DNA of 64,000 nt, taken from Synechococcales cyanobacterium S06 (GTDB lineage: Bacteria; Cyanobacteriota; Cyanobacteriia; Cyanobacteriales; JAABRE01). The notes under the pieces were generated by a model, which was not told the origin of the DNA, ran no database searches, and saw only the letters and a list, made by a program, of their open reading frames with translations. The stretch covers positions 30,660 to 94,659 of the forward strand of contig JAABRE010000007.1 in assembly GCA_011391125.1 (NCBI GenBank). Direction: 5' to 3'. A program made the translations under genes and the position numbers. Positions 10,015 through 53,779 of the stretch are shown here, piece after piece. Each line of letters begins with the position of its first letter. Position 1 is the first letter of the stretch.

Positions 10015-10017
10015 TTT

Positions 10018-10050: not shown

Positions 10051-10056
10051 GGTTAA

Positions 10057-22268: not shown

Positions 22269-25200
22269 TTGGTTGAAATAAAAATTATGGTAGCCACAGT
22301 AAATATAAGTAACGGATACCTTGTTGAAGGTACTAACATAGGTACAGATGGTAAGTCTTTCTTGAATTTCACTATTTCCCTCAGTGAACCATTAACCAGT
22401 CCTCAAAGTATTAAGTATGCAACATTTAATGGTACAGCCACGGGAGGAAGCAGCAATACTAGTGATTATCTGAGTACAACTACTGGTAGTATCACCTTTG
22501 CTGCCGGAGAAATCGTTAAAACCATCAGCATTCAGGTTTTTAATGACAACATTACCGAATTAGACGAAAGCTTTTATCTGAATGTCTTTATTCCTAAGGA
22601 TAGTTTTCTATATACGTTATTAAAATTCGAAGATCCTACCATTCCAGGTACTGACATTTTATCCGGTACAGCCACCGGAATTATTAGCGATACAATATAC
22701 AAGGATGCTAGTTATACCCTAGAGCCTACGGTTGAAAACCTAACTTTAACGGGTACAGGTAATTTTTCCGGTACAGGTAACGACTTAAATAATATTATCA
22801 CCGGTAACAGTGGAGCTAACAATTTAGTAGGAGGAGTAGGAAATGACACCCTAGAAGGAAAAGGAGGAGACGACACTCTCACCGGTGGATCGGGCAATGA
22901 TGTCTATATTATCAGTAATCAAGCCGGTATCGTAGAAGCCGAGAACTCGATTATTAATGGTAATGACACGGTTTTATCCTCCGTCAGTTATACTTTACCA
23001 GCTAACGTTGAAAATTTAACCCTAACAGGAAGCGGACTGATCGATGGTACAGGTAATGCCTTAAATAATAATCTTGTTGGTAATGGCCGCAATAATATTT
23101 TAACGGGGGATGAAGGTAGTGATACCCTTGACGGTGGAGCTGGTAATGATACCCTGAGGGGGGGTTTAGGTGATGACTACTATGTTATCGCTCAATTAGG
23201 TGACAAAATAGAAGGAGAAACTTCTGTCGGTGGTATTGACACCGTTGTCTCCTCATTGAATTACAGATTAGGAGCTAATTTAGAGAACCTGGTATTGACC
23301 AGAAATGCCCTTCAAGGTACAGGTAATACCTTAAATAATAAAATTGTTGGGAACAATTTAGGCAACACTCTTAACGGTGGTAACGGTAGTGATACCCTTG
23401 ACGGAGGTGCTGGGGATGATACCCTAATTGGTGGCAATGCAGATGATTTCTATCTAGTTGACAGTGCCAATGATGTGATCACAGAAACCGCCACAGGTGG
23501 CAATTTAGATGTAGTTCAAGCTTCTGTTAACTATACATTAGGCGCTAATTTAGAAAAATTAATCCTGGCCCCTGGTACCGATAATCTCGAAGGTTTTGGC
23601 AACACTTTAAAAAATATCTTAGTTGGAAATGACGGCAATAACTTCCTAGATGGCGGAACTGGTGGTGACACCATGGAAGGGGGTAAGGGAAATGATACTT
23701 ATTTGATCAATGAAGTCAGCGATATAGTCACTGAAAAAACGGGTGAAGGTATAGATACCGTAGAAACAGAGATTAACAACTATACCCTACCCTTAAATGT
23801 TGACAACCTGAATCTGGCCGAGAAAGACACCATTTTAGTTGGTACAGGTAACACCCTCCCTAATGTTCTCATTGGCAATAGTTACAACAATACCCTGAAC
23901 GGTAATACCGGTAATGACACCCTAGATGGTGGTGTCGGAAATGATACCTTAAATGGTGGTACAGGTAATGATATCTATTACGTTGATAGTGTAGGCGATG
24001 TCATCACGGGAGAAGGTACGGACGTTAGCCCAGATTTAGTTATTTCCTCTGTTACTTACACTCTACCCTTAAATGTTGAACACTTGAACCTGGTAGGTTC
24101 TCTTAATTTATCAGGAACAGGTAACGACAGCAACAACAACATTATTGGCAATACAGGCAATAATACCCTAAATGGTGGCATTGGTAACGATAGTTTAACT
24201 GGTGGAGCTGGTAATGATAGTTTAATTGGTGGCACTGGAGATGATACCCTAGACGGTGGTTTAGGTGTCGATAGCTTAACTGGAGGCACTGGAAATGATC
24301 TATATCGCATCGATAGAATCAAGGATACCATTGTCGAAGAAACATTAGATGGAGGAATTGACACAGTAGAAGCTTCCTTTTCCTATATCCTTAAAGATCA
24401 CTTGGAAAATCTTACCCTTACCGGTACGGGTAATTTTAGTGGTACAGGAAACAGTGTTGCCAATATTATCAAAGGAAACACAGGTGCTAATGCCCTCAAT
24501 GGTCTAGATGGCAATGATAGCATTGACGGTGGTACAGGAAACGATATTATCCTTGGTGGTACAGGAGATGATACCCTCATCGGTGGTACAGGAAATGATA
24601 CCCTCATCGGTAATACAGGAAATGATAGTTATACCGTTGACACTTCCTTTGACGTAATTATCGAGCAAGCCAGTGAAGGTACAGATATCGTAACATTTAT
24701 TGGTACTACGGGTACTTATATCCTGAGTGACAATCTGGAAAACCTGACTCTGTTTGGTACAACTACCACAGCATTTGCTATTAACGGCACAGGTAACAGC
24801 TTAAACAACACCATCACTGGTAATATTGCGTCCAATATCATTGATGGTGGCACAGGTGCAGATATCTTAACTGGTGATAAAGGTAACGACATTTATTTGG
24901 TTGATAATGCTGGGGATAAGGTCTCTGAAACTTCCACTATTACCACAGAAATTGATACAGTCTTCTCCTCCGTAACTTATACCCTTACTAATAACGTCGA
25001 AAACCTTAACCTGACTGGTACAGCTAATCTCAACGGTACAGGTAATGACCTCAGGAATAACATCATTGGTAACGAAGGTAACAACACACTTAATGGTGGG
25101 GGTGGTAACGATATCCTTGACGGTGGTTTAGGAGTCGATAGTCTCATCGGTGGTTTAGGCAATGATACCTACATCGTTGATAATAGTGGGGACAAAGTAA

Positions 25201-25733
25201 CTGAAACTCTCAATCAAGGTACAGATACCGTTGTCAGTTTTATTAACTACACCTTAACTACAGACGTAGAAAACCTGACTCTTGGTGGTGTAGATAACAT
25301 CAATGGAACAGGCAATAATCAAAATAACTCCATTTACGGTAACAGTGGTGATAACATCCTTTACGGTGGTGGCGGAAATGATCTGCTTTACGGTGGAGCC
25401 GGTGCTGACAAATTTAACTATAACACTACAAAGCTATACGCCAGTTCGGCTATCGGCCTAGACGAAATTAATGATTTTAAGCCGGGTGAAGATAAAATCG
25501 TCCTTGGTAAAATTACCTTCGGTTTCCCACTTGCTCAGACTTCATTACTTGATAGTGATTTTGCTGTGGTTGATTTAGATGAGGCTGCTGAAGTTAGTCC
25601 AGCGAGGATTATTTATAGTCGCGAAACCGGTAACTTATTCTATAATCCTAATGGTGCTACTGAGGGAGATAACATTTTCCTACAATTACCCACGACAAAT
25701 AGCCTCTCTGCTAGTGATTTCTTATTAGAGTAG
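22269..25733 (+). CDS. Calx-beta domain + RTX-type calcium-binding repeat protein (about 1150 aa)
   Basis: The N-terminus has a Calx-beta pattern (ATFNGTATGGSSNTSDYLSTTTGSITFAAGEIVKTISIQVFNDNITELDESFYLNV). Ten ~95-aa modules follow, each with YTLxxNVENLxLTGxxNxxGTGN plus GGxGNDxLxGGxGxDxL nonapeptides. The likely true start is ATG at 22287 (the track start is TTG). Confidence 0.85.
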   Translation: MVEIKIMVATVNISNGYLVEGTNIGTDGKSFLNFTISLSEPLTSPQSIKYATFNGTATGGSSNTSDYLSTTTGSITFAAGEIVKTISIQVFNDNITELDESFYLNVFIPKDSFLYTLLKFEDPTIPGTDILSGTATGIISDTIYKDASYTLEPTVENLTLTGTGNFSGTGNDLNNIITGNSGANNLVGGVGNDTLEGKGGDDTLTGGSGNDVYIISNQAGIVEAENSIINGNDTVLSSVSYTLPANVENLTLTGSGLIDGTGNALNNNLVGNGRNNILTGDEGSDTLDGGAGNDTLRGGLGDDYYVIAQLGDKIEGETSVGGIDTVVSSLNYRLGANLENLVLTRNALQGTGNTLNNKIVGNNLGNTLNGGNGSDTLDGGAGDDTLIGGNADDFYLVDSANDVITETATGGNLDVVQASVNYTLGANLEKLILAPGTDNLEGFGNTLKNILVGNDGNNFLDGGTGGDTMEGGKGNDTYLINEVSDIVTEKTGEGIDTVETEINNYTLPLNVDNLNLAEKDTILVGTGNTLPNVLIGNSYNNTLNGNTGNDTLDGGVGNDTLNGGTGNDIYYVDSVGDVITGEGTDVSPDLVISSVTYTLPLNVEHLNLVGSLNLSGTGNDSNNNIIGNTGNNTLNGGIGNDSLTGGAGNDSLIGGTGDDTLDGGLGVDSLTGGTGNDLYRIDRIKDTIVEETLDGGIDTVEASFSYILKDHLENLTLTGTGNFSGTGNSVANIIKGNTGANALNGLDGNDSIDGGTGNDIILGGTGDDTLIGGTGNDTLIGNTGNDSYTVDTSFDVIIEQASEGTDIVTFIGTTGTYILSDNLENLTLFGTTTTAFAINGTGNSLNNTITGNIASNIIDGGTGADILTGDKGNDIYLVDNAGDKVSETSTITTEIDTVFSSVTYTLTNNVENLNLTGTANLNGTGNDLRNNIIGNEGNNTLNGGGGNDILDGGLGVDSLIGGLGNDTYIVDNSGDKVTETLNQGTDTVVSFINYTLTTDVENLTLGGVDNINGTGNNQNNSIYGNSGDNILYGGGGNDLLYGGAGADKFNYNTTKLYASSAIGLDEINDFKPGEDKIVLGKITFGFPLAQTSLLDSDFAVVDLDEAAEVSPARIIYSRETGNLFYNPNGATEGDNIFLQLPTTNSLSASDFLLE

Positions 25734-25773
25734 GTTTAATGGTGCATAACTGTTAGCAACTGAATCAAAAATT

Positions 25774-25810
25774 AGGAGAGAAATATTTTTTCTCTCCTGT
25801 TGTTTATTTT
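25774..25810 (+). terminator. Intrinsic terminator of the RTX gene
   Basis: A 10-bp stem (aggagagaaa / tttctctcct) with a 5-nt loop, followed by gttgtttatttt. It starts 41 nt after the stop codon. Confidence 0.6.
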
Positions 25811-25887
25811 AAATATTAATATTATTAAGACAAAAAAATGAAAAAATTAGAATAAATAAAAACTAGATGAAGTCAAACTATTAAACA

Positions 25888-25980
25888 GCTATATAATATT
25901 TTCTGATTAAGTCTTATATATCCCCTCATCCCAAAGGGAGAGGGGGAAAAAGAGGCAAAATATCAACTAAAAATGCTATA
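25888..25980 (-). repeat. MITE-like element family A, copy 2 (93 bp, inverted orientation)
   Basis: The ends are gctatataatattttctgatt... and ...aaaaatgctata. The core is cccctcatcccaaagggagaggggg. Confidence 0.7.
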
Positions 25981-26046
25981 TAATATTAATTAAAGTTACT
26001 GATTAGAGAAGGATAAAGATAGAGAAGATCAAAACAGACATCCCAA

Positions 26047-26340
26047 TCACCCCTTCTTTTTTTCAGAAATACTTGCTTTTTTCTCTACTTGATAATATTT
26101 TTGATTGATCTAATACTGTAGCCATCAAATTGAAACTCCGGCCACTGGAACTATTCCCTCTAAAAATATTCTCTCTAAAAGTAATTTATCAATTAATATT
26201 TTTGTTTCATTACTAATAGGTTGAGGTCGGGGATTGTTAACTTATTGTCTATGGCAGTTTTTACCTTTATCACGTTGTTTCCCAGACCTCGTTTTACCAT
26301 ACTTAACAATTTTGTCTGACAAACATTTAACACATTTCAT
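26047..26340 (-). pseudogene. Decayed IS1-family-like transposase N-terminal fragment (Zn ribbon + HTH) with in-frame stops
   Basis: The minus strand, in one frame, reads MKCVKCLSDKIVKYGKTRSGKQRDKGKNCHRQ*VNNPRPQPISNETKILIDKLLLERIFLEGIVPVAGVSI*WLQY*INQKYYQVEKKASISEKKKG*. This matches the remembered pattern MxCPxCxSxxIVKNGxxxxGKQRYxCKxCGRQF...ISxETKxLIDKLLLEKISLAGIARVTGVSxxWLQNYVNQKY. Cys ligands are lost, there are three internal stops, and no catalytic region follows. Confidence 0.6.
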
Positions 26341-26549
26341 TAGTTTATCTCCTCCTCTTTATTATTCTGAAATAATGGTAACATTACTATGCATTACTAC
26401 TATTTTGGTTAATCTTGTATTAAAAATTCAGGAATTGCCCTTACCGATATAGACAAGTTATCCCTACATAAATGCACAGATTAGATACAATAGACAGAAT
26501 ATATTTACTGTAAAGTTAATTTAAACAATTATAGGAGAAACAAGCAACC

Positions 26550-28796
26550 ATGGGAAGAGTCGTAGGTATTGATTTGGGAACAACTAATTCTGTAGTAGCT
26601 GTCATGGAAGGTTCAAAGCCAATTGTGATCGCTAATTCAGAAGGAATGCGGACGACTCCTTCTGTGGTAGGTTTTAATAAGGATGGGGAATTAGTCGTGG
26701 GCAGTTTAGCCCGTCGTCAGGGTGTACTAAATCCTCAAAATACCTATTCTGGTGTCAAACGTTTTATGGGTCGCAAATACGCGGAACTTGAGCCTAGTTC
26801 TAAGCGCGTGCCTTACACTATTCGTAAGGATGATCTTGGTAATATTAAAATTCGCTGTCCTCGTCTCAAAAAGGAGTATGCTCCCGAAGAAATTTCCGCT
26901 ATGATTTTAAGAAAATTGGCGGAGGAAGCGGAACGATATTTGGGGGAAAAAGTCACGGGTGCGGTCATTACTGTCCCTGCTTATTTTAATGATTCCCAAC
27001 GCCAAGCGACTAAAGATGCTGGAAAAATCGCTGGCTTGGAAGTTCTACGCATTATTAATGAACCTACTGCTGCTTCTTTAGCCTACGGGTTGGAACAACA
27101 AAAAACTAAGACTATTCTCGTTTTTGATTTGGGTGGTGGTACGTTCGATGTGTCCATTTTGGACGTGGGAGACGGCATTTTTGAGGTCAAAGCTACCAGT
27201 GGAGATACCCAATTAGGTGGTAATGATTTTGACCAGAAAATTGTGAATTGGTTGGCGGAACAATTTTTGGAAACCGAAAAAGTTGACCTTAGACGCGATC
27301 GCCAAGCTCTCCAACGTCTCACGGAGGCGGCTGAAAAAGCCAAGATTGAACTATCCGGTGTATCTGTGACGGAGATTAATTTACCGTTTATTACCGCAAC
27401 GGAAGATGGTCCCAAACACCTCGAAACCCGTTTAGACAGGGCAACTTTTGATAACCTTTGTGGTGACTTAGTTTCCCGTTTAAGACGACCTTTAAAACGC
27501 GCTTTATCTGACGCAGGAATCAGCCCTGTACAAATCGACGAAGTTGTGCTAGTTGGCGGCTCTACCCGTATCCCTTTAGTTCAAGGGTTGGTGCGTAGTT
27601 TCATTGATCGCGAACCGTCCCAAAATGTCAACCCCGATGAAGTGGTGGCCGTTGGTGCTGCTATTCAAGCTGGCATTTTGGGCGGCCAAGTCAAGGATAT
27701 TCTGCTACTTGACGTGACTCCTTTGTCCCTTGGCTTAGAAACCATTGGCGGGGTGATGAAAAAACTTATCCCCCGTAATACTACCATTCCCGTGCGGCGA
27801 TCGGATATTTTTTCAACTAGCGAAAATAACCAAACTTTGGTGGAAGTCCACGTTTTGCAAGGGGAAAGGGAAATGGCCTCGGGAAATAAGTCTCTCGGCC
27901 GTTTTAAATTAACGGGAATTCCTCCTGCTCCTCGCGGTGTACCCCAAGTTCAAGTGTCCTTTGATATTGATGCCAATGGCATTTTGCAGGTTTCCGCCAT
28001 GGATAAAACCACTGGCCGTCAACAAAGTATTACTATTCAAGGGGCTTCTACTTTAGCCGACAGCGAAATCAATCGCATGATTGAAGATGCGTCCAAGTTT
28101 GCCCAGGAAGACAGAGAACGTCGGGAAAGGGTAGAAAAACGCAACCGAGCTAGGGCATTGACTGACCAAGCACAACGTCGAATTAAGGAAGTTACCCTCG
28201 ATTTTGGTAGTCAATTTGCGAGTTATTATCGTCGTCGAATTGAGGCCTTAAGTGCGGAAATTAATGATAGTTTAAAGGAAAATGACGATCGCCGTTTAGA
28301 TCGCGCTCAAGCTGATTTACAAGATGCACTTTATGAGTTAAATCGTGAGGTGAGATTACAATATCGAGACGACGAAGATGACGACTTTTTCGGTTCAATT
28401 AAAAGGACAATTACGGGAGAAAAAGATCGCGAAGATGACCTAGATTCTTATTATAATACTCGCACTTCTAACCCAAATTATAACGAACGTCGAGATAATT
28501 ATCGGGATGATTATCGGGATGATTATAATTATTCTCCGCGTCAAAAAGATGATAATTACTATCAGCAAAAAACTAATTATTCTTCCCGTCAAAAAGATGA
28601 TAATTATTATGAACCAAGAGATAATAGACCTTCTCGCCAAAAAGATGATAATTATTATGAACCAAGAGATAATAGACGTTCTACTCCTCGAAATAATGAC
28701 CCTTATCCTGACCCGAATCAACGTTATTCTGGTACAGGAAAACAGCGAATTCCGCGCCAAAATGATTGGGATGAAGATGACGACGAATGGTTTTAA
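26550..28796 (+). CDS. dnaK: Molecular chaperone DnaK, DnaK3-type with a long repetitive C-terminal extension
   Basis: 748 aa, canonical throughout: [75 protein letters not shown] ~150-aa Asp/Tyr/Arg-rich tail follows. The gene downstream is dnaJ. Confidence 0.95.
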
Positions 28797-28835
28797 CAGT
28801 TAACAGTTAACAGTTATCAGTTATCAGTTGATAGT
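28794..28835. repeat. Heptamer tandem repeat (TAACAGT x3, TATCAGT x2, TGATAGT x1)
   Basis: Read directly. The first unit contains the dnaK TAA stop codon. Confidence 0.85.
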
Positions 28836-28837
28836 TA

Positions 28838-28917
28838 TTTATCCCTCACCCCCCTACCCCCCTCATCCCAAAGGGAGAGGGGGAAAGAGAGATAAAATAT
28901 CAAATGAAAATGCTATA
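28838..28917 (-). repeat. MITE-like element family A, copy 3 (truncated, one TIR missing)
   Basis: ccctcacccccctacccccctcatcccaaagggagagggggaaagagagataaaatatcaaatgaaaatgctata. The far end is replaced by the heptamer repeats. Confidence 0.6.
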
Positions 28918-28976
28918 AAAGTTAATTATTAACTAAAATAATAAATATTTTAATAAACATTAAAAAATTATACAAT

Positions 28977-29939
28977 ATGCAAAGTTTAAGAAATTATTAT
29001 GAAGTTTTAGAAGTTCAGTCAAATGCCACTGGTGATGAAATTAAGAGGGCTTTTCGTAAATTAGCGAGGCGTTATCATCCAGACGTTAACCCCGGTGATT
29101 TAACCGCCGAGGAAAAATTTAAGAACCTTAATGAAGCTTATGAGGTGCTTTCTGATGATGAAAAGCGATCGCAATATGATCTTTTTCTCCGTCAACAAAA
29201 AACCGCAAAAAGACCAAGTTTTAACAAAAATAATACCACTAAAGCTGCGGAATATAGCGATTTTAATCAGTTTGTCGATCAGATGCGCAATCGTCGACCT
29301 CCAGCGAACACCACAGCAACAGCCGAAAATCCTCGTATTCGGGTTAATTCCACTGAAGGATATAAACCTGGTACGGTCAAAACCCCAAAAGTGGTTAATC
29401 CGAGGGCCGGTGCTGTTAGGCCGAGGGATATTGAGGCTAGGTTAACTTTACCACTGGAAAAGGCTTATTTAGGCGGAAAAGAGCGGATTCGCCTCGAAGA
29501 TGGTAGATCTTTGGAGGTGGAAATGCCTCCGGGGATGCTCGATGGACAGAAAATTCGCCTCAAAGGTCAAGGCATTGCTGGTGGTGACTTATACCTCAAG
29601 ATAACCGTTGCACCCCATGCACTATTTGAGTTACAGGGTGCTGATATTTACTGCCAAGTTCCGGTTACTCCCTCGGAAGCGGTATTAGGAGGTGCGGTGG
29701 AAGTGCCAACTATTGACGGTTTAGTTAAAATGACCGTCCCTAGTGGTGTGAGAAGTGGTCAACGGCTGCGGTTGGCGAATAAAGGTTATCCCCGAGGAAA
29801 AGATAATTCTCGGGGTGATCAATTGGTGGAAATAGTGATAGTAACTCCCAAGGAAATTAGCGAAGAAGAAAGAGATTTGTATCGCCAAATTCGGGAATTA
29901 GAAACTTTTAAACCTCGCAAAAATTTAGTTGAAAATTAG
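28977..29939 (+). CDS. dnaJ: DnaJ-family co-chaperone lacking the zinc-finger region (type II, DnaJ3-like)
   Basis: 320 aa. The J domain is intact, with HPD ([36 protein letters not shown]...[23 protein letters not shown]). There are no CxxCxGxG repeats. The DnaJ C-terminal beta domains are present ([28 protein letters not shown]...). Confidence 0.9.
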
Positions 29940-29975: not shown

Positions 29976-30863
29976 TTAAAGAGAGTTATTTTCACCTAAC
30001 AAAGAATTATTGCTTCGGTAAGTTTTTAATAGAGATAGGAATTTTGTTCTATTAAAACTGCGAGGATCTTTTCTTAGGCCTGATCGATCAACAGATTGAT
30101 GGGTAGTAATTCTGTCTTCAGAAATGTTGGTTTGAGCTATTAACCAGGCTAAAGATTCATATTGGCCAGCGGTATAACCACTGTGCGATCGCTGATTACC
30201 TCGACCATCAGCAGGGGTTTCTAAGGAGACATGATAGGCAAAATTGTTGACAGAGCTAGGAAATTTGGGATGAAGTTTGACGGTTTCCACTCCTGATGGT
30301 CCTTTAAAGATGGAATTACCCGCTCCAAATGCTCTCTTTTCCGGTGGGACGAGATAAACAATAGCACCGTTGCGCGGAATTAAAACATGGTAACTAACTT
30401 GATTGGTTTCTCGAATGTTATTATTTTTAAAAGTATTAATCGCGCTAGTTGCTGAACCCACCGTTTCATGTAAAACCAGTATCATTTGATTATTGATGGG
30501 CTTGCCGTAAATATCTTGAGAAGCGCGAGTTTCATAGTTGCTAGGATGTACATTGACAATGCTTTGTTGGGGTATATATTCAGGCGTTGTGATGGCTTTA
30601 GCAACAATAGTAGGTTGGGGAAGAATAGGTGTATAAATCTGTAATTCATCTTCAGGTTTTATTTCATCAAATGAATTAGATTTCGATAAATTATTTTCTT
30701 GTGCAGATAAACTGGTTAGGGATGGAATAAACTTGAAAATAGTGGGAGTAAAAATTATTAAAAAGGTGATTAATCCCATTAAAAATATTGATTTGAGGAA
30801 CTTGAATTTCATTGTTATTACTAATAGGGTTTTTTTACCAGATTTACATTTATAATAATTCAT
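29976..30863 (-). CDS. Membrane-anchored N-acetylmuramoyl-L-alanine amidase (amidase_2/PGRP-type)
   Basis: 295 aa with an N-terminal TM helix. ILVLHETVGSATSAINTF...VSYHVLIPRNGAIVYLVPPEKRAFGAGNS...AYHVSLE...YESLAWLIAQ...ITTHQSVD fits the amidase_2 pattern. Confidence 0.7.
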   Translation of the reverse strand: MNYYKCKSGKKTLLVITMKFKFLKSIFLMGLITFLIIFTPTIFKFIPSLTSLSAQENNLSKSNSFDEIKPEDELQIYTPILPQPTIVAKAITTPEYIPQQSIVNVHPSNYETRASQDIYGKPINNQMILVLHETVGSATSAINTFKNNNIRETNQVSYHVLIPRNGAIVYLVPPEKRAFGAGNSIFKGPSGVETVKLHPKFPSSVNNFAYHVSLETPADGRGNQRSHSGYTAGQYESLAWLIAQTNISEDRITTHQSVDRSGLRKDPRSFNRTKFLSLLKTYRSNNSLLGENNSL

Positions 30864-30876: not shown

Positions 30877-30931
30877 GTAGGGTGGGCATTGCCCACCAAA
30901 TGATTCTTGTGGTGGGCAATGCCCACCCTAC
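30877..30931. repeat. Inverted pair of GTGGGCA(A/T)TGCCCAC palindromes framed by GTAGG/CCTAC
   Basis: gtagggtgggcattgcccacc-N13-ggtgggcaatgcccaccctac. The TAG stop of the type IIG gene (complement of 30928-30930) lies inside the right arm. Split relatives occur at 39922-39990, 54086-54104 and 57304-57371. Confidence 0.85.
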
Positions 30932-33900
30932 TTAATTTTCTCCTGAATAATTGCCATTTCTTCTGGAGTTAATCCATATAAAAGGGCTACTTTCTCGTCT
31001 AATTCTGCTTCCCATTTCTCTACTCCTATTCCTTTTGCTTCAATACATTTTTGTACTAATTTTTCGATCGCCTTTTTCTCTTTTTCTGTTACTTTAGGAA
31101 TGGGAATTTGTGAAACATGGATTGATTGAAATTCAAAAAAACCTCCTTGTCTTGTAGCTGCACTTTGAGAGATTAAATACTGACAAATTTTAGAATTTAA
31201 AATTGCCACCAAATATTGATCATTTTCAGATACGATTAAATTAGCAGGAGCAGAAAGATAATAACCTTTTTTTGTACAAGAAAACTGTGGTTTAGTTGCT
31301 AAATTTCCCCAGACAATTAAAGAAGAATTAAATCGTTGCCAATAAGCACAACTTCTTAATTCCCAAAAATATTTACCTTGATCTGTTCGTTTAATTAATT
31401 TTTCTCGATAATTGTTAAATCTGTTATAAATGGCGGGATAAGTATTAGCAAAAATTTGTTCAGCTTCTTCTTTTGGTTTATCACTCCAAGGATGTTTTTT
31501 ATTTTCCGAAGATTCAATTTTAATTAAATATTGATCGGCAAAATTAATAGTCCATCTTTTAACATCTCTACCCCGAATTAATGGTTTTAAAATTTCTGCG
31601 GAAGAAGGATGTTCATTAATTAATTGATCCCTAGTTTCTTTATTTATTACAAATGCTTCATTAAAACCCGTTTTAATGCCATAATAAAACTTACCTTCCA
31701 CATATTCACCTAAAGGAATACCAGAATTTTTTAACTTATCTAATAAAGCTAAAATTTGAGGTGATTCTAATTGCCAACCTTCTGGTTTTAATAGTGTTTG
31801 ATCAATGGAGATATAATTATTTTTAAATATCTCAGGAAAATCTTTAATATTGGCCTCCGTTGATTGATCCCAAGACATTGCTTTAATATGATTTTGATTC
31901 GGTTGATTTTTACTCATGACAATAATACTAGGATAGGCGATCGCTTCATCAAATACGGGATAATCACCAAAATCAATTAAAGTATGAATAGTGGTATTTT
32001 CTGTTAAGAAATGACGGAGTTTTTCCCCATAATTAGAGCGAAAATATTTGTTAGAACAAATGTAGGCAAAATGACCCGTATTTTTTAATAATTTCAACCC
32101 CAATTCATAGAAATAAACAAATAAATCTGCTACCCCCGTATAACAGGTATAATTTTCTTGCAAAAAGGGTTTCAATTCCTTAATTTCCTCTTGTCTGATA
32201 TAGGGAGGATTGCCAATAATCACATCAAAACCGACAAAATCACCCTCATTATTTAATACTTCGGGAAATTCAAAACGCCATTCAAAAGCCTTTTCATAGA
32301 TTTTATCACTTTTGAGTTCCTCGATTTTTAGTCGTAAAATTTCGATGTCTTTTTCCAAAGATTTCTGTTGTTTCTCCTTCTCTTTTTGCTCCTTTTTAGT
32401 CGGTTCAAAAAGTTCGGTTTGATGCAATAAATTCTCTAATTCACCCTCCTTTTTTAAGAGCTTTTTAAATTGGGGATCAGTATGATAAATTTCAGTGGTA
32501 AAATTATCCTTAATTTCCTTAATTAAATTTACCATAGCTTGCTTTTCTTGTTTATTTAGAGCATTTTGATAAATTTTAACTGCATTTCGATAGGTTTCAA
32601 TGGTGAATTTTTTCTTACTTAAAACTCCCTTTAAACTACTGTTTAAATCAAAACGACTAATCAAAGAATTGCCACATTTAATATTAATATCAAGATTAGA
32701 TAAAGTTTCTAAATCTTGATAATTAGTTTCAGCTTTATAATAAGCATTTTTTAAGAGTTCAATCCATAAACGTAAACGACAAATTTGTACCGAGTTCGGA
32801 CTAATATCTACCCCAAATAAACAATTTTCAATGATTCTTTGTTTTTCATGAAAGAGAGTTTTTTGTACTCGATTACTTTCCTTTCCTTCAATCTGATATT
32901 CAAAAAAAGTACCATTTTCATCAGTTATAATTAACTCATCATTAACTACCTGTATATCATAACCTCGTAAAGCTTTGCCATTTTCATCTAATAAAATATT
33001 TAACTCACTTTTAATGGCAATTATTTCATTAAGGGCCGACACCAAAAAATGACCAGAACCAACAGCTGGATCACATATTTTTATGGTATTAATAATTTTA
33101 TCGGCCTCTCCATATTCGGGAACTTTAATGTAATTATAGAGTTGCTCAAAATTCTGACAATTCCAACCTTTTACCTCATTAAATTTCTTGACAACCGCGC
33201 GACGTAAAGTTTCACGACACATAGACATCGTGATATAACCCGGGGTAAAAAATGAACCGTCTTTATAACCGTTTATTTTCTCAAAAATCAACCCTAAAAC
33301 CGCAGCATTGATCAGGGTTTTATTGTCTTCTTGGATAGTTTCACTACCCTCACTACTAAAATCATAAGAATCTAAAAACTCAAATAAATAGATAAGAGAA
33401 TTAAGTTTTCCTGTGCGTTTTTTTCCTTCTTTATCCTTTAAAACAGTCGTCGAAAAAATTGGTAAATTTTCCTCAGCAATATCCTTAATAAATACAGTCG
33501 TTTTTTCTAATTCTGTCGGTTCAAATAGAGAACTATTTAGATAGGGAATATACTCGAAAATACGTCGTAAATCTTCATTTCTCAGCTCCTTTTTTTTAGC
33601 TAAAATCTCAAAAAATAACTCATTTAATTCGTGATAATTATGGATTTTACTTTTATGCAAAAAAGCATAATTATAATTTCCTTTTTCGTATTTATTTTGA
33701 TAATTGATTAATTGGGCTTCGAGTAATTTAAGAAATAAAATCCGATTAAGCCATGTGATTACTAATTCTAAGGCCACCTCAAAGAGTTTGTCCTCATATT
33801 TTTTGCCCCATTTTAAGGGAGAAAATTTACTTAAACTAACTAATTTATTTATCGTATTTTCAATCAAAGAACCAGATAAACGATCTTTTTGAGAATTTCG

Positions 33901-34719
33901 AGCAATTATTTTTTTACCTTTTTGTTGTACTTCAGTTAGTCCAATTATATACAATAATTCAGTATAAAATTCCGTGTCTAATTTATTACTATCATTGGCA
34001 AAAGGTAACTGAAGTAAATGTTCGGGAGATAAAATTTTAAATAGTGCAATTAAAGCTTTATCTTCCTCCTTATTTTCTCCTTTTAAATACTGTTGATAAT
34101 CCCGTATATCAAAATAAGTAAATTGTAAGTTATCCTTAATTTTTTCCACCCAAGGTGCTGCTATTTCTTGATAAAAATATTCTGTCTTTGTTCCCTCTAA
34201 TTCTCGATTCTGAAAAGCTTGAAACTGATTAACAAACCCCTGATTTTTCGCAAAATAACTATCAAAAATTTCCTCATCAAAGATAAACCATTCATTAATA
34301 TTAGTGGCAATTAAATGGGTAATATCATGATTATTTTCGTTAATTCTTTCCCGCATAAAATACAAAATTAACTCATGAAAAGCCTTAGTATTAAGATTAT
34401 CAACCTTTAACATTTCGGTACGATTAGTGGGCTTTTTCGCCTCAATAATTACCCCAACCGAATCAGTTGCTTCTTTCCCTTTATGAATAACAAGATCATT
34501 TCGTCCTTTGGTATTTATGAAATGATCAGGACTATAATAAGTATTTTTCAGAAAGTCGGCAATTAAATTTTTATTAAATTCCTCTGATTCAGAATCATTT
34601 ATTCTCTCTAATAAATTTGAAAAATTTTTCTTAAATTTTTCAATATCTCTTCTAATAGGTTTTAATCTTAAAAAAGCTTTATTGAGAGACTTTCTAGGAG
34701 TCAAAATAGAATTATTCAT
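30928..34719 (-). CDS. Type IIG restriction-modification enzyme (PD-ExK nuclease + N6-adenine methyltransferase + TaqI-like specificity domain)
   Basis: 1263 aa. The N-terminus has a D...ExK-like motif (NDLVIH...GVIIEAKKP). The methyltransferase has motif I ICDPAVGSGHFLVSAL and motif IV VIIGNPPYIRQEE. The C-terminal YYGIKTGFNEAFVI is typical of Eco57I/TaqI-like target-recognition modules. Confidence 0.85.
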   Translation of the reverse strand: MNNSILTPRKSLNKAFLRLKPIRRDIEKFKKNFSNLLERINDSESEEFNKNLIADFLKNTYYSPDHFINTKGRNDLVIHKGKEATDSVGVIIEAKKPTNRTEMLKVDNLNTKAFHELILYFMRERINENNHDITHLIATNINEWFIFDEEIFDSYFAKNQGFVNQFQAFQNRELEGTKTEYFYQEIAAPWVEKIKDNLQFTYFDIRDYQQYLKGENKEEDKALIALFKILSPEHLLQLPFANDSNKLDTEFYTELLYIIGLTEVQQKGKKIIARNSQKDRLSGSLIENTINKLVSLSKFSPLKWGKKYEDKLFEVALELVITWLNRILFLKLLEAQLINYQNKYEKGNYNYAFLHKSKIHNYHELNELFFEILAKKKELRNEDLRRIFEYIPYLNSSLFEPTELEKTTVFIKDIAEENLPIFSTTVLKDKEGKKRTGKLNSLIYLFEFLDSYDFSSEGSETIQEDNKTLINAAVLGLIFEKINGYKDGSFFTPGYITMSMCRETLRRAVVKKFNEVKGWNCQNFEQLYNYIKVPEYGEADKIINTIKICDPAVGSGHFLVSALNEIIAIKSELNILLDENGKALRGYDIQVVNDELIITDENGTFFEYQIEGKESNRVQKTLFHEKQRIIENCLFGVDISPNSVQICRLRLWIELLKNAYYKAETNYQDLETLSNLDINIKCGNSLISRFDLNSSLKGVLSKKKFTIETYRNAVKIYQNALNKQEKQAMVNLIKEIKDNFTTEIYHTDPQFKKLLKKEGELENLLHQTELFEPTKKEQKEKEKQQKSLEKDIEILRLKIEELKSDKIYEKAFEWRFEFPEVLNNEGDFVGFDVIIGNPPYIRQEEIKELKPFLQENYTCYTGVADLFVYFYELGLKLLKNTGHFAYICSNKYFRSNYGEKLRHFLTENTTIHTLIDFGDYPVFDEAIAYPSIIVMSKNQPNQNHIKAMSWDQSTEANIKDFPEIFKNNYISIDQTLLKPEGWQLESPQILALLDKLKNSGIPLGEYVEGKFYYGIKTGFNEAFVINKETRDQLINEHPSSAEILKPLIRGRDVKRWTINFADQYLIKIESSENKKHPWSDKPKEEAEQIFANTYPAIYNRFNNYREKLIKRTDQGKYFWELRSCAYWQRFNSSLIVWGNLATKPQFSCTKKGYYLSAPANLIVSENDQYLVAILNSKICQYLISQSAATRQGGFFEFQSIHVSQIPIPKVTEKEKKAIEKLVQKCIEAKGIGVEKWEAELDEKVALLYGLTPEEMAIIQEKIK

Positions 34720-34815
34720 AGGTAATTAAATTAATAAAAAAACACTTAAACTAATATTATACTATTAGTAGGTCATGGCGTTAATTATTTCTTGTGAGCA
34801 ATATTTTAAGAATGT

Positions 34816-34872
34816 AAAAGCTCGTTGTTGCGCTTTAGCGCATTAGATAGCCCTAAAGCGCAACAACGAACC
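34816..34872. repeat. GTTGTTGCGC hairpin element (family B, hairpin-only copy)
   Basis: aaaagctcgttgttgcgctttagcgc...ccctaaagcgcaacaacgaac; the two arms are complementary at 17 of 18 positions. Confidence 0.7.
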
Positions 34873-34912
34873 ATTTGCAAAGTTTTAATCAATAAACTGA
34901 GGTTAAATCGGT

Positions 34913-35497
34913 ATGAATCAACCAATTTTATTAGAAATTCCACCCAAATTTAAGGTGACAGAAACACAGTTTGAACTTTTGTCCACTTTTAATCGAGATT
35001 TAAGAATGGAACGTAATTGTAATGGAGAATTAATCATTATGCCCCCAACAGGTGGAAATACAGGAAAACGTAACGCCAATTTAGCTTATCAAATACAATT
35101 ATGGAATAATAAATACAAATTAGGGGAAGTGTTTGATTCTTCTACGGCATTTCGACTCCCCAATGGAGCGCAAAAATCCCCCGATGTCAGTTGGATTAAA
35201 AAGGAGCGTTGGGAAACCTTAACACCCCAAGAAAAAGACAGTTTTCCTCCCCTTTGTCCTGACTTTGTTGTCGAATTACGCTCTCGTACAGATAGTATGG
35301 TAAAATTGCGCGAAAAAATGCAAGAATACCTCGATAATGGTATTAGTTTGGGGTGGTTAATTGACCCGCAAAATAAAATTGTTGAAATTTATCGACCTAA
35401 TCAGAAGGTGGAAATTTTACAGTCACCAAAAATATTATCAGGAGAGAATATTCTCCCTGATTTTGTGTTAGATTTAGAGTTAATTTTTAGGGATTAA
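34913..35497 (+). CDS. Uma2 family (DUF820) endonuclease
   Basis: 194 aa. NGELIIMPPTGGNTGKRN...SPDVSWI...PDFVVELRSRTD...K..EY fits the PD-(D/E)xK Uma2 pattern. Confidence 0.85.
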   Translation: MNQPILLEIPPKFKVTETQFELLSTFNRDLRMERNCNGELIIMPPTGGNTGKRNANLAYQIQLWNNKYKLGEVFDSSTAFRLPNGAQKSPDVSWIKKERWETLTPQEKDSFPPLCPDFVVELRSRTDSMVKLREKMQEYLDNGISLGWLIDPQNKIVEIYRPNQKVEILQSPKILSGENILPDFVLDLELIFRD

Positions 35498-35547
35498 AAA
35501 TCATTATTGAACTTTAAGGTTAGCGCTAAAGCGTAACTACAAACTTT

Positions 35548-36321
35548 TTAAAATAGCAGGTATTTTTGCCTAAATTCTTGCACAACATTTAACAAATTTT
35601 TGTCAAGAATTGCTTTAGTTTCTGATGCTATATATTCGGGAATACCACCGTAAAATGCTTCGGCAATTCCACCACAAAGACAGGCGATTGTGTCACTATC
35701 TCCTCCTAAAGATATGGCATTTCTGATGGCATCTTCGTAATTTTCTGACTCTAAAAATGCGATGATTGCTTGAGGAACTGAACCTTGACAAGAGACATCA
35801 AATTTATAATTAGGGCGAATTTCTGCTAAGGTTTCATTCAAATTGTAAGCAAAATTATCCTCAATAAATGTCTTAATTTCTATCTTATTTTTACCTTTTC
35901 TAGCCAGAAAAATTGCACTGGCCGTTGCTTGTGTTCCTTTAATTCCTTCGGGATGATTATGGGTAACTTCGGCACTTTTTTTCGCTTCTAATAACACCGT
36001 TTCTAACTCATCAAAAGCAAATCCTACCGCACTAACTCGCATCGCTGAACCGTTACCCCAGCTGTTATAGGGCTGCATATTATCAGATTTTCCCCAACCC
36101 TGAAAACTTGCACCATAACCGCGTTTAGGATATCTTTTATAATATTCTTTTAATTTGAGATTATAGGGTTTATTATTAATAATTGCATCGGCAATTGCAA
36201 CGGTTAAAACGGTATCATCTGTAAAATCACTATTCCTTTTAAATAAAGGAAAATCCTTGGTTTTAATATTATGCCATTCATACACTGAACCAATTATATC
36301 ACCGGCGATCGCTCCTAACAT
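35548..36321 (-). CDS. ADP-ribosylglycohydrolase family protein
   Basis: 257 aa. MLGAIAGDIIGSVYEW...FTDDTVLTVAIADAI...GNGSAMRVSAVG...THNHPEGIKG...GGDSDTIACLCGGIAEAFYG is the ARH (DraG-like) fold signature, including both metal-binding Asp clusters. Confidence 0.8.
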   Translation of the reverse strand: MLGAIAGDIIGSVYEWHNIKTKDFPLFKRNSDFTDDTVLTVAIADAIINNKPYNLKLKEYYKRYPKRGYGASFQGWGKSDNMQPYNSWGNGSAMRVSAVGFAFDELETVLLEAKKSAEVTHNHPEGIKGTQATASAIFLARKGKNKIEIKTFIEDNFAYNLNETLAEIRPNYKFDVSCQGSVPQAIIAFLESENYEDAIRNAISLGGDSDTIACLCGGIAEAFYGGIPEYIASETKAILDKNLLNVVQEFRQKYLLF

Positions 36322-36543
36322 ATTACCTCCAAATTTATCTATCCTGTCAGGTTTTTAAATTTAGCTCCTTGTCTGCACCCGAGTCAATCTTTTGGGAGTT
36401 AATTTGCTTGCAACAAGAAACCAAATGTATTCATTTTGATCAAAAAAAGATAATTATTTTTCTGCCTTATTTTTTATTAGCAATTTAAATAGTGCTATAA
36501 TTTTTTACAAAGCAATTTATTTGCTTAAATATAAAATGTTTCA

Positions 36544-36828
36544 ATGTATGAAAAAAATCCTGATCAAAAAATTATCAATTATGGCTTAATTAAAATGGAA
36601 ACTATCAATTTAGATCGCATTGTGATTAAACAGGATGTTTGTTTGGGACAACCAACCATCCGAGGTTTGAGAATTACGGTTGCTTTTGTGCTAAAGCTTT
36701 TAGCCAATCAACTGTCTGTTGCTGAAATTATCCAAGCTTATCCTGAATTAGAAGCTGAAGATATAAAACAAGCTCTTAATTATGCCGCTTGGACAGTATC
36801 AGATCAACAAATTAGCATTTCATCGTGA
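36544..36828 (+). CDS. DUF433 domain protein (antitoxin-like)
   Basis: CLGQPTIRGLRITVAFVLKLLANQLSVAEIIQAYPELEAEDIKQALNYAAW. The likely true start is ATG at 36595 (METINLDRIV). Its stop overlaps the start of the next gene (GTGA). Confidence 0.8.
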   Translation: MYEKNPDQKIINYGLIKMETINLDRIVIKQDVCLGQPTIRGLRITVAFVLKLLANQLSVAEIIQAYPELEAEDIKQALNYAAWTVSDQQISISS

Positions 36829-37199
36829 AAAATATACGTTTATTAGCTGATCTTCATATTTCTCCCAAAACTGTTGCATCTTTACAACAGCAAGGATACG
36901 ATATCAGGCGAATTTCAGAAATTTTACCGGCTAATTCTCCTGATCTTGATATTTTAGAATTAGCGCGTTCGACTAACTCCATTGTTGTTACTCAAGATTT
37001 AGATTTTTCCATGTTGGTCGCCCTTAGTGGCAAAAGTCAACCAAGCTTGATAACTTTGCGTTTATCCGAAGCTACTCCTGATCTTGTCACTCAAAAACTA
37101 TTAGCTATACTACCAAAAATAGAGGAACTTTTACAATCAGGTTCTGCTGTTACCATAAAAAATGATCTCGTTCGCATTCGCAAATTACCTATTCGGTAA
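36825..37199 (+). CDS. DUF5615 family PIN-like protein (toxin-like partner of DUF433)
   Basis: 124 aa. IRLLADLHISPKTVASLQQQGYDIRRISEIL....PDLDILELARSTNSIVVTQDLDF is the DUF5615 pattern. There is a 4-bp overlap with the upstream DUF433 gene. Confidence 0.8.
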   Translation: MKNIRLLADLHISPKTVASLQQQGYDIRRISEILPANSPDLDILELARSTNSIVVTQDLDFSMLVALSGKSQPSLITLRLSEATPDLVTQKLLAILPKIEELLQSGSAVTIKNDLVRIRKLPIR

Positions 37200-37206: not shown

Positions 37207-38385
37207 TTAAATCTGGCGAATTACTGTTAGTAATTCCTCAATTTGTTGGGTTGTGTGGGTCGCCATTAACGAAAATCTAATCCTACTGGTTGGCACTGTT
37301 GGCGGCCGAATCGCTGGAGCAAAAATACCCGCTTCTTTTAATTTTTCCGACGCTATTAATGCTGTTTTTGCTGACTCTAATCCTAGGCAAATAATCGGTG
37401 ATTCTGACGGCAAATTGACCGGATTTTTCCCCTTACTAAGGGGGATAATTTTTGATAATTCCTGTTTAAAATAAGTCACGTTTTCACCTAATTTTGCCCT
37501 GCGTTGGGGTTCGGTTTCTACAATTGCGATCGCCCTCAACGCTGCTGCCGTGTCTGCGGGACTCAACGCTGTCGTATAAATCCAACTGGGCGATCGATTC
37601 CGCAAAAAGTCGATTAACGTTGCACTCCCCGCCACGTAACCTCCCAAACTCCCCAATGCTTTGCTCAATGTCCCAACTTGGATCATTTCCTCACCGCTAC
37701 AGCCGAAATGTTCCACACACCCCGCTCCCGTTTTTCCCATGACTCCCGTGGCGTGTGCTTCATCAAATAAGACCATGCAATCATATTTTTTTCCCAAGCT
37801 TAATAAATCAGGTACTTGACAAATGTCGCCGTCCATGCTGAAGACAGAATCCGTGGTTATTAAACAACGGCGATATTGATGGCGGTTTTCCTCTAACTTG
37901 GCTGCTAAATCCTTGAAATCGCAGTGTAAATATTCAATGACCGTCGCTCCGCTAAGTTTAGCGCCATTTTTCAAGCTGGAATGATTGTAAATATCCCCCA
38001 AAATCAGGTCTTTTGAGCCGACAATGGCGGCAATTGTGCCAATATTCGCTAAATAGCCCGAACTAAATACTAAGGCATCTTCGGTCTGTTTTAAACGGGC
38101 GATCGCCTGTTCAAGTTGGCTATGTAGATCACGATGACCACTCAGTAAACGTGAGCCGGTGCTTCCTGTGCCGTATTGTTCCACGGCGGCGATCGCACTT
38201 TGGATTAATCGTTCATCTCCGGCTAAACCTAAGTAGTCGTTACTAGCGAAATTAATAACAGTTTTTCCCTCTAATTCTAGGGTTGATCCGGGTAAATTTG
38301 ACACCGTTTTTTCGCTACGATACCAGTTAGCTTTATGGAGGGTTTCTAGGGATTTATTTAACCATTTATAGGGACCTTTTGTCAT
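37207..38385 (-). CDS. bioF: 8-amino-7-oxononanoate synthase
   Basis: 392 aa, alpha-oxoamine synthase family. [31 protein letters not shown] and the PLP lysine context [14 protein letters not shown] are present. Confidence 0.9.
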
Positions 38386-49584: not shown

Positions 49585-49712
49585 AATTAGATAAAGGTAA
49601 AAGTTCGGTGTTGCGCGTAAGGGCGAACGGCCGTTCGCCCCTACATAATAGCGCTAAAGCGCAACAACAAACCTTCTTTACTTTTCACCAATAATTTTGC
49701 GCGCGGTACTTA
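49585..49712. repeat. Family B long hairpin element, copy B1 (~128 bp)
   Basis: aattagataaaggtaaaagttcggtgttgcgcgtaagggcgaacggccgttcgcccctacataatagcgctaaagcgcaacaacaaaccttctttacttttcaccaataattttgc...tactta. It is collinear with copies at 50881 and 55312. Its end includes the pstS stop codon. Confidence 0.7.
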
Positions 49713-50880: not shown

Positions 50881-50988
50881 AATTGTATAAATCTAAAAGC
50901 TCGTTGTTGCGCTTTAGCGCTACCAGCTCGAGAGGCGCAACAACAAACCTTCTTTATTTTTCACAATTAATTTTGCTTAGGTACTTAA
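50881..50988. repeat. Family B long hairpin element, copy B2 (~108 bp)
   Basis: aattgtataaatctaaaagctcgttgttgcgctttagcgc...ggcgcaacaacaaaccttctttatttttcacaattaattttgcttaggtacttaa. Confidence 0.7.
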
Positions 50989-53125: not shown

Positions 53126-53779
53126 TTGGCTTCAGTATATAATGACAGGAAAATTATAGTTATTGTTAAGATTATGTCATTATTTTCATTGCCGGCGATC
53201 GCCACTTTAGAAGCATCTCTTAAGGATACCGAAGAAAAATTGACCTTTACAGGGGTAAGTTGGGAAAAATATGAGCAGTTACTTGCGGACTTGGGAGATA
53301 GCTCAACTTATCGGACTATTTATTTAGAGGGAGTTTTGGAAATTATGTCTCCGAGTCGTCGTCATGAAGTTAGCAAAGAAAGTATTGGTAGAATACTCGA
53401 AGTTTACCTAGAAAAGGCGCAACTTGATTTTTGGGGATTAGGTTCAACGACCTTACGTCGTCAAGAAGGTGAAGCAGGCAAAGAACCTGATAAATGTTAC
53501 TGTCTTTATACTGATAAGACAATGCCCGATCTAGCCATTGAGGTAATTATCACAAGTGGTAGGAAAAAACTCATTTTAGAGGTATATCGTCGGTTGGGAA
53601 TTAAAGAGGTTTGGTTGTGGCAAAATGAGGACTTAAAGGTTTATTCTCTACAAAATAATGAATATTTTTTAAGTGAAAAAAGCATTTTATTACCAGATTT
53701 AGATTTAGAATTATTAGCCCAATATATTAATCATCCTAATCCTCGTTTGGCAATGAAGGAATTTAGAGAGAACTTGTAA
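53126..53779 (+). CDS. Uma2 family (DUF820) endonuclease
   Basis: WEKYEQLLADLGDSSTYRTIYLEGVLEIMSPSRRHE...PDLAIEVIITSG...YRRLGIKEVWLW. The likely start is ATG at 53174 (MSLFSLPAI); the track start is TTG. Confidence 0.8.
   Translation: MASVYNDRKIIVIVKIMSLFSLPAIATLEASLKDTEEKLTFTGVSWEKYEQLLADLGDSSTYRTIYLEGVLEIMSPSRRHEVSKESIGRILEVYLEKAQLDFWGLGSTTLRRQEGEAGKEPDKCYCLYTDKTMPDLAIEVIITSGRKKLILEVYRRLGIKEVWLWQNEDLKVYSLQNNEYFLSEKSILLPDLDLELLAQYINHPNPRLAMKEFRENL

Follow-up and report, generated by a model that had tools for sequence, protein, structure and literature searches.

A predicted stand-alone type IIG restriction-modification enzyme in a probable patchwork of accessory modules on a cyanobacterial chromosome

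Type IIG enzymes such as MmeI, BpuSI and DrdV read, methylate and cut DNA with one polypeptide chain. These three structurally solved type IIG (type IIL-like) enzymes (5HR4, 3S1S and 7LO5/7LVV, respectively) are all encoded by solitary genes, like the enzyme described here, whose gene lies in a 64-kb stretch of cyanobacterial DNA that was analysed as a whole (the window). The evidence supports assignment of its 1263-aa product as a predicted intact, single-chain type IIG restriction-modification enzyme that stands alone. The open reading frames (ORFs) of the window place five genes between housekeeping genes within 6.3 kb. Their ends are identical to those given in an earlier sequence-only reading, and Pfam confirmed the identity of each:

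30928-34719, minus strand: type IIG enzyme, 1263 aa (Pfam DUF7149, DUF7814, Eco57I and TaqI_C)
34913-35497, plus strand: Uma2 protein, 194 aa (Pfam Uma2, 163 bits)
35548-36321, minus strand: ADP-ribosylglycohydrolase (ARH), 257 aa (Pfam ADP_ribosyl_GH, 120.5 bits against a cut-off of 26.2)
36544-36828, plus strand: DUF433 protein, 94 aa (Pfam, 75 bits)
36825-37199, plus strand: DUF5615 (PIN-like) protein, 124 aa (Pfam DUF5615, 69.7 bits)

The flanking genes also proved to be those first named, an amidase and dnaJ on one side and bioF on the other: Pfam revealed DnaK and DnaJ domains and Amidase_2 on the former, and BioF on the latter scored 451.8 bits with TIGR00858 (cut-off 426.45). Rfam and tRNA scans gave no match within or beside the region, and promoter and terminator scans of the region showed no excess over shuffled sequence. 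The 6.3 kb contain two HIP1 elements (GCGATCGC), where the 23 sites in 64 kb would predict about 2.3, so HIP1 density is uninformative on the region.

The enzyme is built from the following domains and motifs, listed from the N-terminus:

33991-34719, minus strand: putative PD-(D/E)xK nuclease domain, DUF7149 (aa 1-243)
34495-34497 and 34435-34443, minus strand: nuclease motif read in the ORF, D75 and E93-A-K95, respectively
33310-33990, minus strand: connector domain, DUF7814 (aa 244-470, Pfam 277 bits)
31930-33099, minus strand: gamma-class N6-adenine methyltransferase domain (aa 541-930, Pfam Eco57I and MmeI_Mtase)
33046-33072, minus strand: SAM motif DPAVGSGHF (aa 550-558)
32200-32211, minus strand: catalytic NPPY (aa 837-840)
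31075-31929, minus strand: TaqI-like target recognition domain (aa 931-1215, Pfam TaqI_C at aa 1045-1207)

The nuclease motif and the NPPY methyltransferase lie within the single 1263-aa ORF, the specificity domain is part of the same chain, and no HsdS-like gene adjoins it. The fusion of a PD-ExK-like nuclease, a methyltransferase and a TaqI-like domain proposed from the letters agrees with these Pfam domains, and the motifs quoted with it are present. A PADLOC profile search, suggested at that stage as a check, yielded an end-to-end match to the type IIG profile REase_MTase_IIG (PDLC03612) of 970 bits, with aa 10-1261 aligned on profile positions 9-1246 of 1247. The length of the protein is comparable to the 1250-1270 aa of its homologues. 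In an alignment of 27 homologues, D75 and E93 never vary, K95 is retained by at least 90%, and DPAVGSGHF and NPPY are both invariant. The AlphaFold model of the N-terminal domain (pLDDT about 90) has a core of alpha-beta-beta-beta-alpha-beta order, in which strand 2 carries D75, strand 3 ends with E93 and K95 follows directly. Comparison of this model against the PDB by Foldseek gave weak best matches (E 0.4-1.1), among them the nuclease domains of DrdV, RecU and BpuSI. The DUF7814 connector is largely helical in the AlphaFold model, at moderate confidence, and a charged, coiled-coil-like insert separates the SAM motif from NPPY. A PDB sequence search matched CamA, M.BseCI and PglX methyltransferases. 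The recognition domain is the most variable part, with 29-61% identity to homologues versus 51-68% in the other domains. As its identity to the aligned homologues does not exceed 61%, they give no prediction of the recognition site, and the recognition sequence probably differs from theirs.

From this architecture and the conserved motifs, we infer that the enzyme is active. The C-terminal TaqI-like domain would read an asymmetric site, and the methyltransferase would use SAM to methylate adenine at N6 via DPAVGSGHF and NPPY. The N-terminal D...ExK nuclease would cut unmethylated foreign DNA at a constant offset from the site, and the helical DUF7814 connector would keep it apart from the methyltransferase. 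MmeI, BpuSI and DrdV operate in this manner. The enzyme could also work mainly as a methyltransferase, were its nuclease activity attenuated.

The enzyme has more than 8000 homologues. The best 120, 50-61% identical where scored, all contain DUF7149, DUF7814 and Eco57I (120/120), and TaqI_C is missing only from two truncated ones; many come from Planktothrix, Microcystis, Anabaena, Dolichospermum and Nodularia. The nearest full-length homologue among the matches listed is 61% identical to the enzyme. A metagenome scan with the enzyme returned relatives of 32-64% identity, which did not include the closest relative described below, and the exact proteins occur in one NCBI contig and one sequencing run only. 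Plasmid-borne homologues of 38-44% identity are found in Bacteroides, lactic acid bacteria and Enterococcus. In four genomes inspected gene by gene (Anabaena, Planktothrix, Microcystis and Cyclobacterium), the homologues are single-gene inserts with no neighbour in common. The enzyme therefore belongs to a common, already catalogued family, and such a locus is ordinary for cyanobacteria. We identified no DUF7149/DUF7814 member with biochemically proven cleavage, a literature search on DUF7149 was empty, and a limited search of the literature on type IIG enzymes and cyanobacterial methylomes met no characterised homologue. To our knowledge, no structure of the DUF7149/DUF7814 half has been solved. 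Biochemistry or a structure of any member would be useful, as the family is very common and no characterised member was found. The locus leaves the current understanding of defence systems unchanged. Its significance is largely practical: an intact type IIG enzyme with such a divergent specificity domain would be expected to bar transformation and phage infection in this organism, and could add a new recognition specificity to enzyme catalogues.

The Uma2 protein belongs to a family of PD-(D/E)xK fold and matches PDB 1wdj (TT1808) with an E-value of 8e-39. Two further Uma2 copies are present in the window (12526-13107 and 53126-53779), and each of the three has different neighbours. In the closest relative, represented by two metagenome contigs (L088 and L089) of a related organism, the enzyme gene, spacer and Uma2 are collinear with those here at 88-89% DNA identity. 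Similarity to both contigs ends at position 35500, and a different gene lies directly past Uma2. Uma2 would thus form a second module, a multi-copy gene of nuclease-like fold whose link to the enzyme holds in this lineage and not family-wide.

The ARH would be a third module, a lone and compact ARH3-like enzyme that looks catalytically competent: it retains the metal-ligand motifs GDIIGSVYE, TDDT and GGDSDT, and its residues E15, D35-D36, D208, D210 and T211 coincide with the ARH3 motifs in an alignment. It has more than 8000 homologues, 65-71% identical among the matches listed and spread across phyla, and has a mobile-element context elsewhere. The gene is apparently monocistronic, and no ADP-ribosyltransferase was found nearby, in agreement with its earlier description as an orphan.

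The DUF433 stop and the DUF5615 start overlap by 4 bp, and both genes of this pair had been recognized from the letters. The DUF433 protein matches PDB 2ga1, and the DUF5615 protein reaches 24 bits with the PIN_10 profile, under its cut-off, the family matched being DUF5615. DUF433/PIN pairs are an established toxin-antitoxin class of cyanobacteria: COG2442/DUF433 is listed as antitoxin partner of PIN toxins in Synechocystis, where the class is abundant (PMC4963859), and DUF433-PIN_10 has been presented as a toxin-antitoxin system (PMC5499597); no paper was found on DUF5615 together with DUF433. We read the pair, which would be the fourth module, as a predicted VapBC-type toxin-antitoxin system with DUF433 as putative antitoxin and DUF5615 as putative toxin. 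A second toxin-antitoxin pair lies elsewhere in the window.

Repeats occupy three of the gene junctions:

30877-30931, no strand assigned: hairpin repeat with 27-nt arms 93% complementary (-47.2 kcal/mol, z -9.6)
34816-34872, no strand assigned: hairpin of the dispersed intergenic GTTGTTGCGCTTTAGCGC family, between the enzyme gene and Uma2 (-31.1 kcal/mol, z -8.4)
35521-35544, no strand assigned: half copy of the GTTGTTGCGCTTTAGCGC repeat, about 20-25 nt past the end of similarity to the relative

These far exceed chance (0 expected in shuffles) and fall into two unrelated families. The hairpin at 30877-30931 overlaps the stop codon of the enzyme gene and ends 14 nt short of the amidase start codon. 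Direct reading of the sequence found no U-tract after it, and the window holds no second copy; its 17-mer core GGTGGGCAATGCCCACC also occurs in seven loci of other cyanobacterial assemblies. The GTTGTTGCGCTTTAGCGC family has four more copies elsewhere in the window, and its hairpin at 34816-34872 is also present in the relative L088. The repeats are therefore real at the three places where they were first seen, but the ARH/DUF433 and DUF5615/bioF junctions carry no such repeat, so their assignment to each junction was overstated.

The sequence-only reading had taken the five genes as one islet and a candidate indel. In its strongest form this would make the whole 6.3 kb a single horizontally acquired defence island, with five genes that arrived together and cooperate. 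The genes are indeed contiguous, three junctions carry hairpin repeats, and the run of four conflict-type modules gave a p-value of about 0.02 when gene order was permuted across the window. However, this value is reached only with ARH counted and is otherwise not significant, and the repeats belong to two unrelated families that recur throughout the genome or in many cyanobacterial assemblies. The enzyme gene is richer in AT than the genes next to it, and its GC content of 29.5% is well below the 43-44% of dnaK, dnaJ and bioF, as noted before, but it remains within the range of the window (z = -1.4 against all window genes, with four genes equally low or lower). Low GC was rejected as evidence of transfer, since the gene is no outlier in the window, and the 34-36% GC of the Uma2, ARH and toxin-antitoxin genes equals the window mean. 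Among 85 loci of enzyme homologues (814 kb), we found no Uma2, no ARH, no DUF5615 and one DUF433. In addition, synteny with the relative breaks in the middle of the block, directly past Uma2, the Uma2 and toxin-antitoxin genes are scattered across the whole window, and at neither border of the block did the ORF list and tRNA scan reveal an integrase, a transposase or a tRNA. A single island is therefore very unlikely, and the four accessory genes next to the enzyme are unrelated to it. We consider it highly probable that the region combines, as a patchwork, three or more independent accessory modules inserted between housekeeping genes on the chromosome of a cyanobacterium, with only one recognisable defence system, the first module, which would be the stand-alone type IIG enzyme. 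Nor is the block universally conserved core genome, the outcome named earlier as speaking against an islet: amidase relatives (71-74% identity) have unrelated neighbours, and bioF relatives in a genome scan (at most 76% identity) conserve only the order DUF1823-bioF. With the best bioF relative at 76%, no genome found is close enough to define insertion end points, and we call the modules independently acquired because of their lack of co-occurrence, not from observed indels.

A smaller unit has been weighed within the patchwork, a lineage-specific pair of the enzyme gene and Uma2 in which Uma2 would serve the enzyme as an accessory nuclease or regulator. It would account for the divergent pair and its spacer being kept in both contigs of the relative while the DNA past Uma2 differs, but shared ancestry alone would predict such adjacency in one related organism. 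Uma2 was found beside the enzyme family at 0 of 85 other loci, and it is a multi-copy gene (three in 64 kb) with differing neighbours, so we hold this pairing to be very unlikely. Equally doubtful is a broader version for this cyanobacterial lineage, in which the GTTGTTGCGCTTTAGCGC and GGTGGGCAATGCCCACC repeats mark cassette-swap junctions, the amidase-bioF locus is a recombination hot spot and Uma2 assists or controls the enzyme in a functional unit. The identity of the enzyme itself was also challenged. The large protein might be no restriction enzyme but the methyltransferase (PglX or DrmMI) of a BREX or DISARM system that has degenerated or become dispersed, as PglX and DrmMI profiles match it partially, across the methyltransferase/specificity region. 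The NCBIfam PglX models, however, reach 109.5, 65.5 and 59.6 bits against cut-offs of 500, 900 and 400, respectively, 5 to 15 times under the curated values. In PADLOC, the best PglX profile scores 73 bits versus the 970 bits of the type IIG profile, which covers the whole protein. The N-terminal D...ExK motif conserved in the 27 homologues also argues against a methyltransferase of this kind. No PglZ, BrxC, BrxL or DrmABC-type genes were present among ORFs of at least 110 aa in the window or beside four homologues, which agrees with the absence of BREX partners reported before. A BREX or DISARM identity was rejected on the missed cut-offs and absent partner genes and is extremely improbable, and the original preference for type IIG over PglX stands.

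Comparison with known systems places each module. The DUF433/DUF5615 pair consists of the same two families as known COG2442/DUF433 - PIN-like pairs, likewise with the antitoxin first, and its genes overlap by the 4 bp given above. The ARH shares the ADP_ribosyl_GH fold and acidic metal-binding motifs with ARH3, DraG and Tri1. However, ARH3 is about 90 aa longer, and the ARH lies far under the equivalog cut-offs for Tri1 (45 vs 490) and DraG (40 vs 337) and has no adjoining cognate ADP-ribosyltransferase. PglX and DrmMI resemble the enzyme in their Eco57I-type methyltransferase core and TaqI_C-like specificity module, whereas the enzyme has a conserved, predicted N-terminal nuclease domain and no partner genes. 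MmeI, BpuSI and DrdV share with it the order of parts, from a predicted nuclease through a helical connector and a gamma-class NPPY methyltransferase to a C-terminal specificity domain. The enzyme is 250-350 aa longer than these three, carries the charged insert between SAM motif and NPPY, and has an N-terminal half made of DUF7149/DUF7814; its first 540 aa have no detectable sequence similarity to them, and the PDB sequence match covers aa 828-1227 only. Its closest counterpart is PDLC03612, which represents the DUF7149-DUF7814-Eco57I-TaqI_C architecture and with which the enzyme is collinear over its full length.

The ORF map placed all five genes of the block (30928-37199) at exactly the coordinates claimed by the sequence-only reading, with housekeeping genes on either side.

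Genes of the block and its flanks
26550-29939: DnaK and DnaJ (Pfam), housekeeping flank, same side as the amidase
29976-30863: Amidase_2 protein (Pfam), housekeeping flank, DnaK/DnaJ side
30928-34719, minus strand: type IIG enzyme, 1263 aa (Pfam DUF7149, DUF7814, Eco57I and TaqI_C)
34913-35497, plus strand: Uma2 protein, 194 aa (Pfam Uma2)
35548-36321, minus strand: glycohydrolase, 257 aa (Pfam ADP_ribosyl_GH)
36544-36828, plus strand: DUF433 protein, 94 aa (Pfam DUF433)
36825-37199, plus strand: PIN-like DUF5615 protein, 124 aa (Pfam DUF5615), overlapping the DUF433 gene by 4 bp
37207-38385: BioF (exceeds the TIGR00858 cut-off), housekeeping, other flank

A DUF1823 gene comes after bioF. The host is cyanobacterial; the window contains 23 sites of the HIP1 octamer GCGATCGC against 0.15 expected, and the closest BioF relatives belong to Xenococcaceae and Pleurocapsales-type genomes (71-76% identity). 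Elsewhere in the window, a second chaperone-like cluster (6292-12267, minus strand), separate from DnaK/DnaJ, contains GrpE, a short J-domain protein, a LysM protein, a divergent 736-aa Hsp70 and a 700-aa TPR protein whose gene has a very low GC content (28%). The gene at 22269-25733 (plus strand) encodes a 1154-aa protein with 15 matches to the RTX calcium-binding repeat plus a Calx-beta domain, and a low-GC intergenic stretch (about 25750-26500, 28-32%) separates it from dnaK.

That the large gene encodes a solitary type IIG enzyme and not a BREX protein, as first read from the sequence, is well supported. The PADLOC type IIG profile PDLC03612 scored 970 bits and spanned aa 10-1261, whereas the profiles of the BREX and DISARM methyltransferases, PglX and DrmMI, reached at most 137 bits and covered the methyltransferase and specificity part only. 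Identity as PglX was rejected, with NCBIfam PglX scores a factor of 5 to 15 under the cut-offs, and no BREX or DISARM partner was found among ORFs of at least 110 aa across the 64-kb window. The sequence contains D75, E93-A-K95, DPAVGSGHF (aa 550-558) and NPPY (aa 837-840). In an alignment with 26 homologues, D75, E93, DPAVGSGHF and NPPY are invariant and K95 is retained in at least 90%. An AlphaFold model of aa 1-540, confident over aa 1-240 (pLDDT about 90), predicted for the latter an alpha-beta-beta-beta-alpha-beta core as expected for a PD-(D/E)xK nuclease; D75 sits on strand two, E93 ends strand three and K95 comes directly after. Sequence matches to solved structures (CamA, M.BseCI and PglX) are confined to aa 828-1227, so the N-terminal half of the family is structurally uncharted.

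The enzyme has more than 8000 homologues. The best 120 show 50-61% identity where scored, and all carry DUF7149, DUF7814 and Eco57I, with TaqI_C missing only in two truncated ones; many come from Planktothrix, Microcystis, Anabaena, Dolichospermum and Nodularia, others from Bacteroidota. Plasmid-borne homologues (38-44% identity) occur in Bacteroides, lactic acid bacteria and Enterococcus. In all four genomes compared (Anabaena, Planktothrix, Microcystis and Cyclobacterium) the gene stands alone among housekeeping genes that differ from genome to genome; Planktothrix also has toxin-antitoxin and other defence genes nearby, and Microcystis has IS elements. Identity to homologues is 29-61% in the specificity region (aa 931-1215) compared with 51-68% in the other domains, which is the usual pattern of diversifying specificity. 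Therefore, the recognition site is not transferable from any relative, and the specificity is probably new.

That the five genes form one coherent defence islet was not supported. Searching 85 enzyme-homologue loci (814 kb) by tblastn with the neighbour genes revealed DUF433 once and Uma2, the glycohydrolase and DUF5615 not at all. The sole close relative found, two JGI metagenome contigs with 88-89% DNA identity, is collinear with 33592-35500, a stretch comprising the N-terminal part of the enzyme, Uma2 and the hairpin-bearing spacer between them. The similarity ends no more than about 10 nt from the stop codon of Uma2, and the contigs continue with a gene for an ABC-transporter ATPase in place of the glycohydrolase; the window has a half copy of the dispersed repeat some 20-25 nt past this breakpoint. 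No type IIG gene lies upstream of the amidase in its relatives (71-74% identity). Among 80 BioF loci, DUF5615 was absent and DUF433 was present in one, about 8 kb from bioF. In favour of an islet, the run of four conflict-type modules gave p of about 0.02 by gene-order permutation when the glycohydrolase was counted as conflict-type; with it left uncounted, the clustering was not significant. The enzyme gene (29.5% GC) is indeed more AT-rich than its immediate neighbours, but it is no outlier in the window (z = -1.4), where four other genes have an equal or lower GC, and the other four block genes match the window mean. At the edges of the block there is no tRNA, integrase or transposase. Beside an amidase homologue on a stromatolite metagenome contig (L174, 11136-13208), we observed a ThyX (Thy1) gene split by an intein with an HNH endonuclease domain.

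The hairpin repeats are REP-like dispersed elements and do not delimit a single mobile unit. The near-perfect hairpin at 30877-30931 (-47 kcal/mol) covers the enzyme stop codon, reaches to 14 nt from the start of the amidase gene and has no second copy in the window. The 17-nt palindrome of this hairpin (30881-30927), GGTGGGCAATGCCCACC, has exact copies in loci of seven other cyanobacterial assemblies, including Coleofasciculus, Paraprochloron, Dolichospermum and a Microcystaceae genome; in five of the seven loci, bioF has a copy no more than about 300 nt away. The palindrome appears to be a dispersed repeat that is widespread in cyanobacteria and different from HIP1. Seven copies of the GTTGTTGCGCTTTAGCGC family occur in the window, none inside ORFs of at least 110 aa; all three Uma2 genes have at least one copy beside them, and a phosphate-binding-protein gene is bracketed by two. 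Related hairpins at 53785-53835 and 53917-53940 share the GTTGTTG...CAACAAC ends of this family, with different stems.

Positions of repeat copies
GGTGGGCAATGCCCACC, in loci of other assemblies: L005, 9833 and 14614; L014, 9810; L015, 20266; L031, 11186; L034, 8294; L044, 7542 and 15545; L076, 261
GTTGTTGCGCTTTAGCGC, in the window: 12391-12408, 34824-34867, 35523-35540, 49651-49668, 50903-50944, 53943-53960

Further small genes of such types are found elsewhere in the window.

Other small accessory genes in the window
12526-13107, plus strand: Uma2 family
53126-53779, plus strand: Uma2 family
56834-57292, plus strand: DUF29 gene
59203-59565 and 59549-60049, both plus strand: nucleotidyltransferase (MNT) and HepT-like genes that overlap, predicted to be a second toxin-antitoxin module

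The two extra Uma2 genes show that this family is multi-copy in the host genome, and together with the MNT/HepT pair and the DUF29 gene they indicate that such small genes are sprinkled through the chromosome. The pair and the DUF29 gene are about 20 kb from the block.

The glycohydrolase, from a compact subfamily (about 257 aa, more than 8000 members), keeps the ARH3-type metal ligands; among the matches listed, homologues from several phyla show 65-71% identity. Against the equivalog models for Tri1 and DraG it stays far under the cut-offs. The surroundings of one homologue (71% identity, locus L177) are mobile-element-like and encode an ISL3 transposase, ParB and a DnaB-like (DnaB/DUF3987) primase-helicase. 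There (3894-5774; also L178-L180) the homologue follows, on the same strand after a 46-nt gap, the gene of a 353-aa protein that weakly matches an ion channel, and the two may form a two-gene module, absent from the window.

Compared with known systems, the enzyme is an additional member of a catalogued family. DUF433/PIN-like pairs, predicted VapBC-type toxin-antitoxin systems, form an abundant and established class in cyanobacteria (PMC4963859; PMC5499597). The Uma2 protein matches the TT1808 structure (PDB 1wdj), and Uma2 is a predicted endonuclease, expanded in cyanobacteria (PMC3424549). The region has accumulated unrelated accessory genes of kinds that are routine in cyanobacterial genomes.
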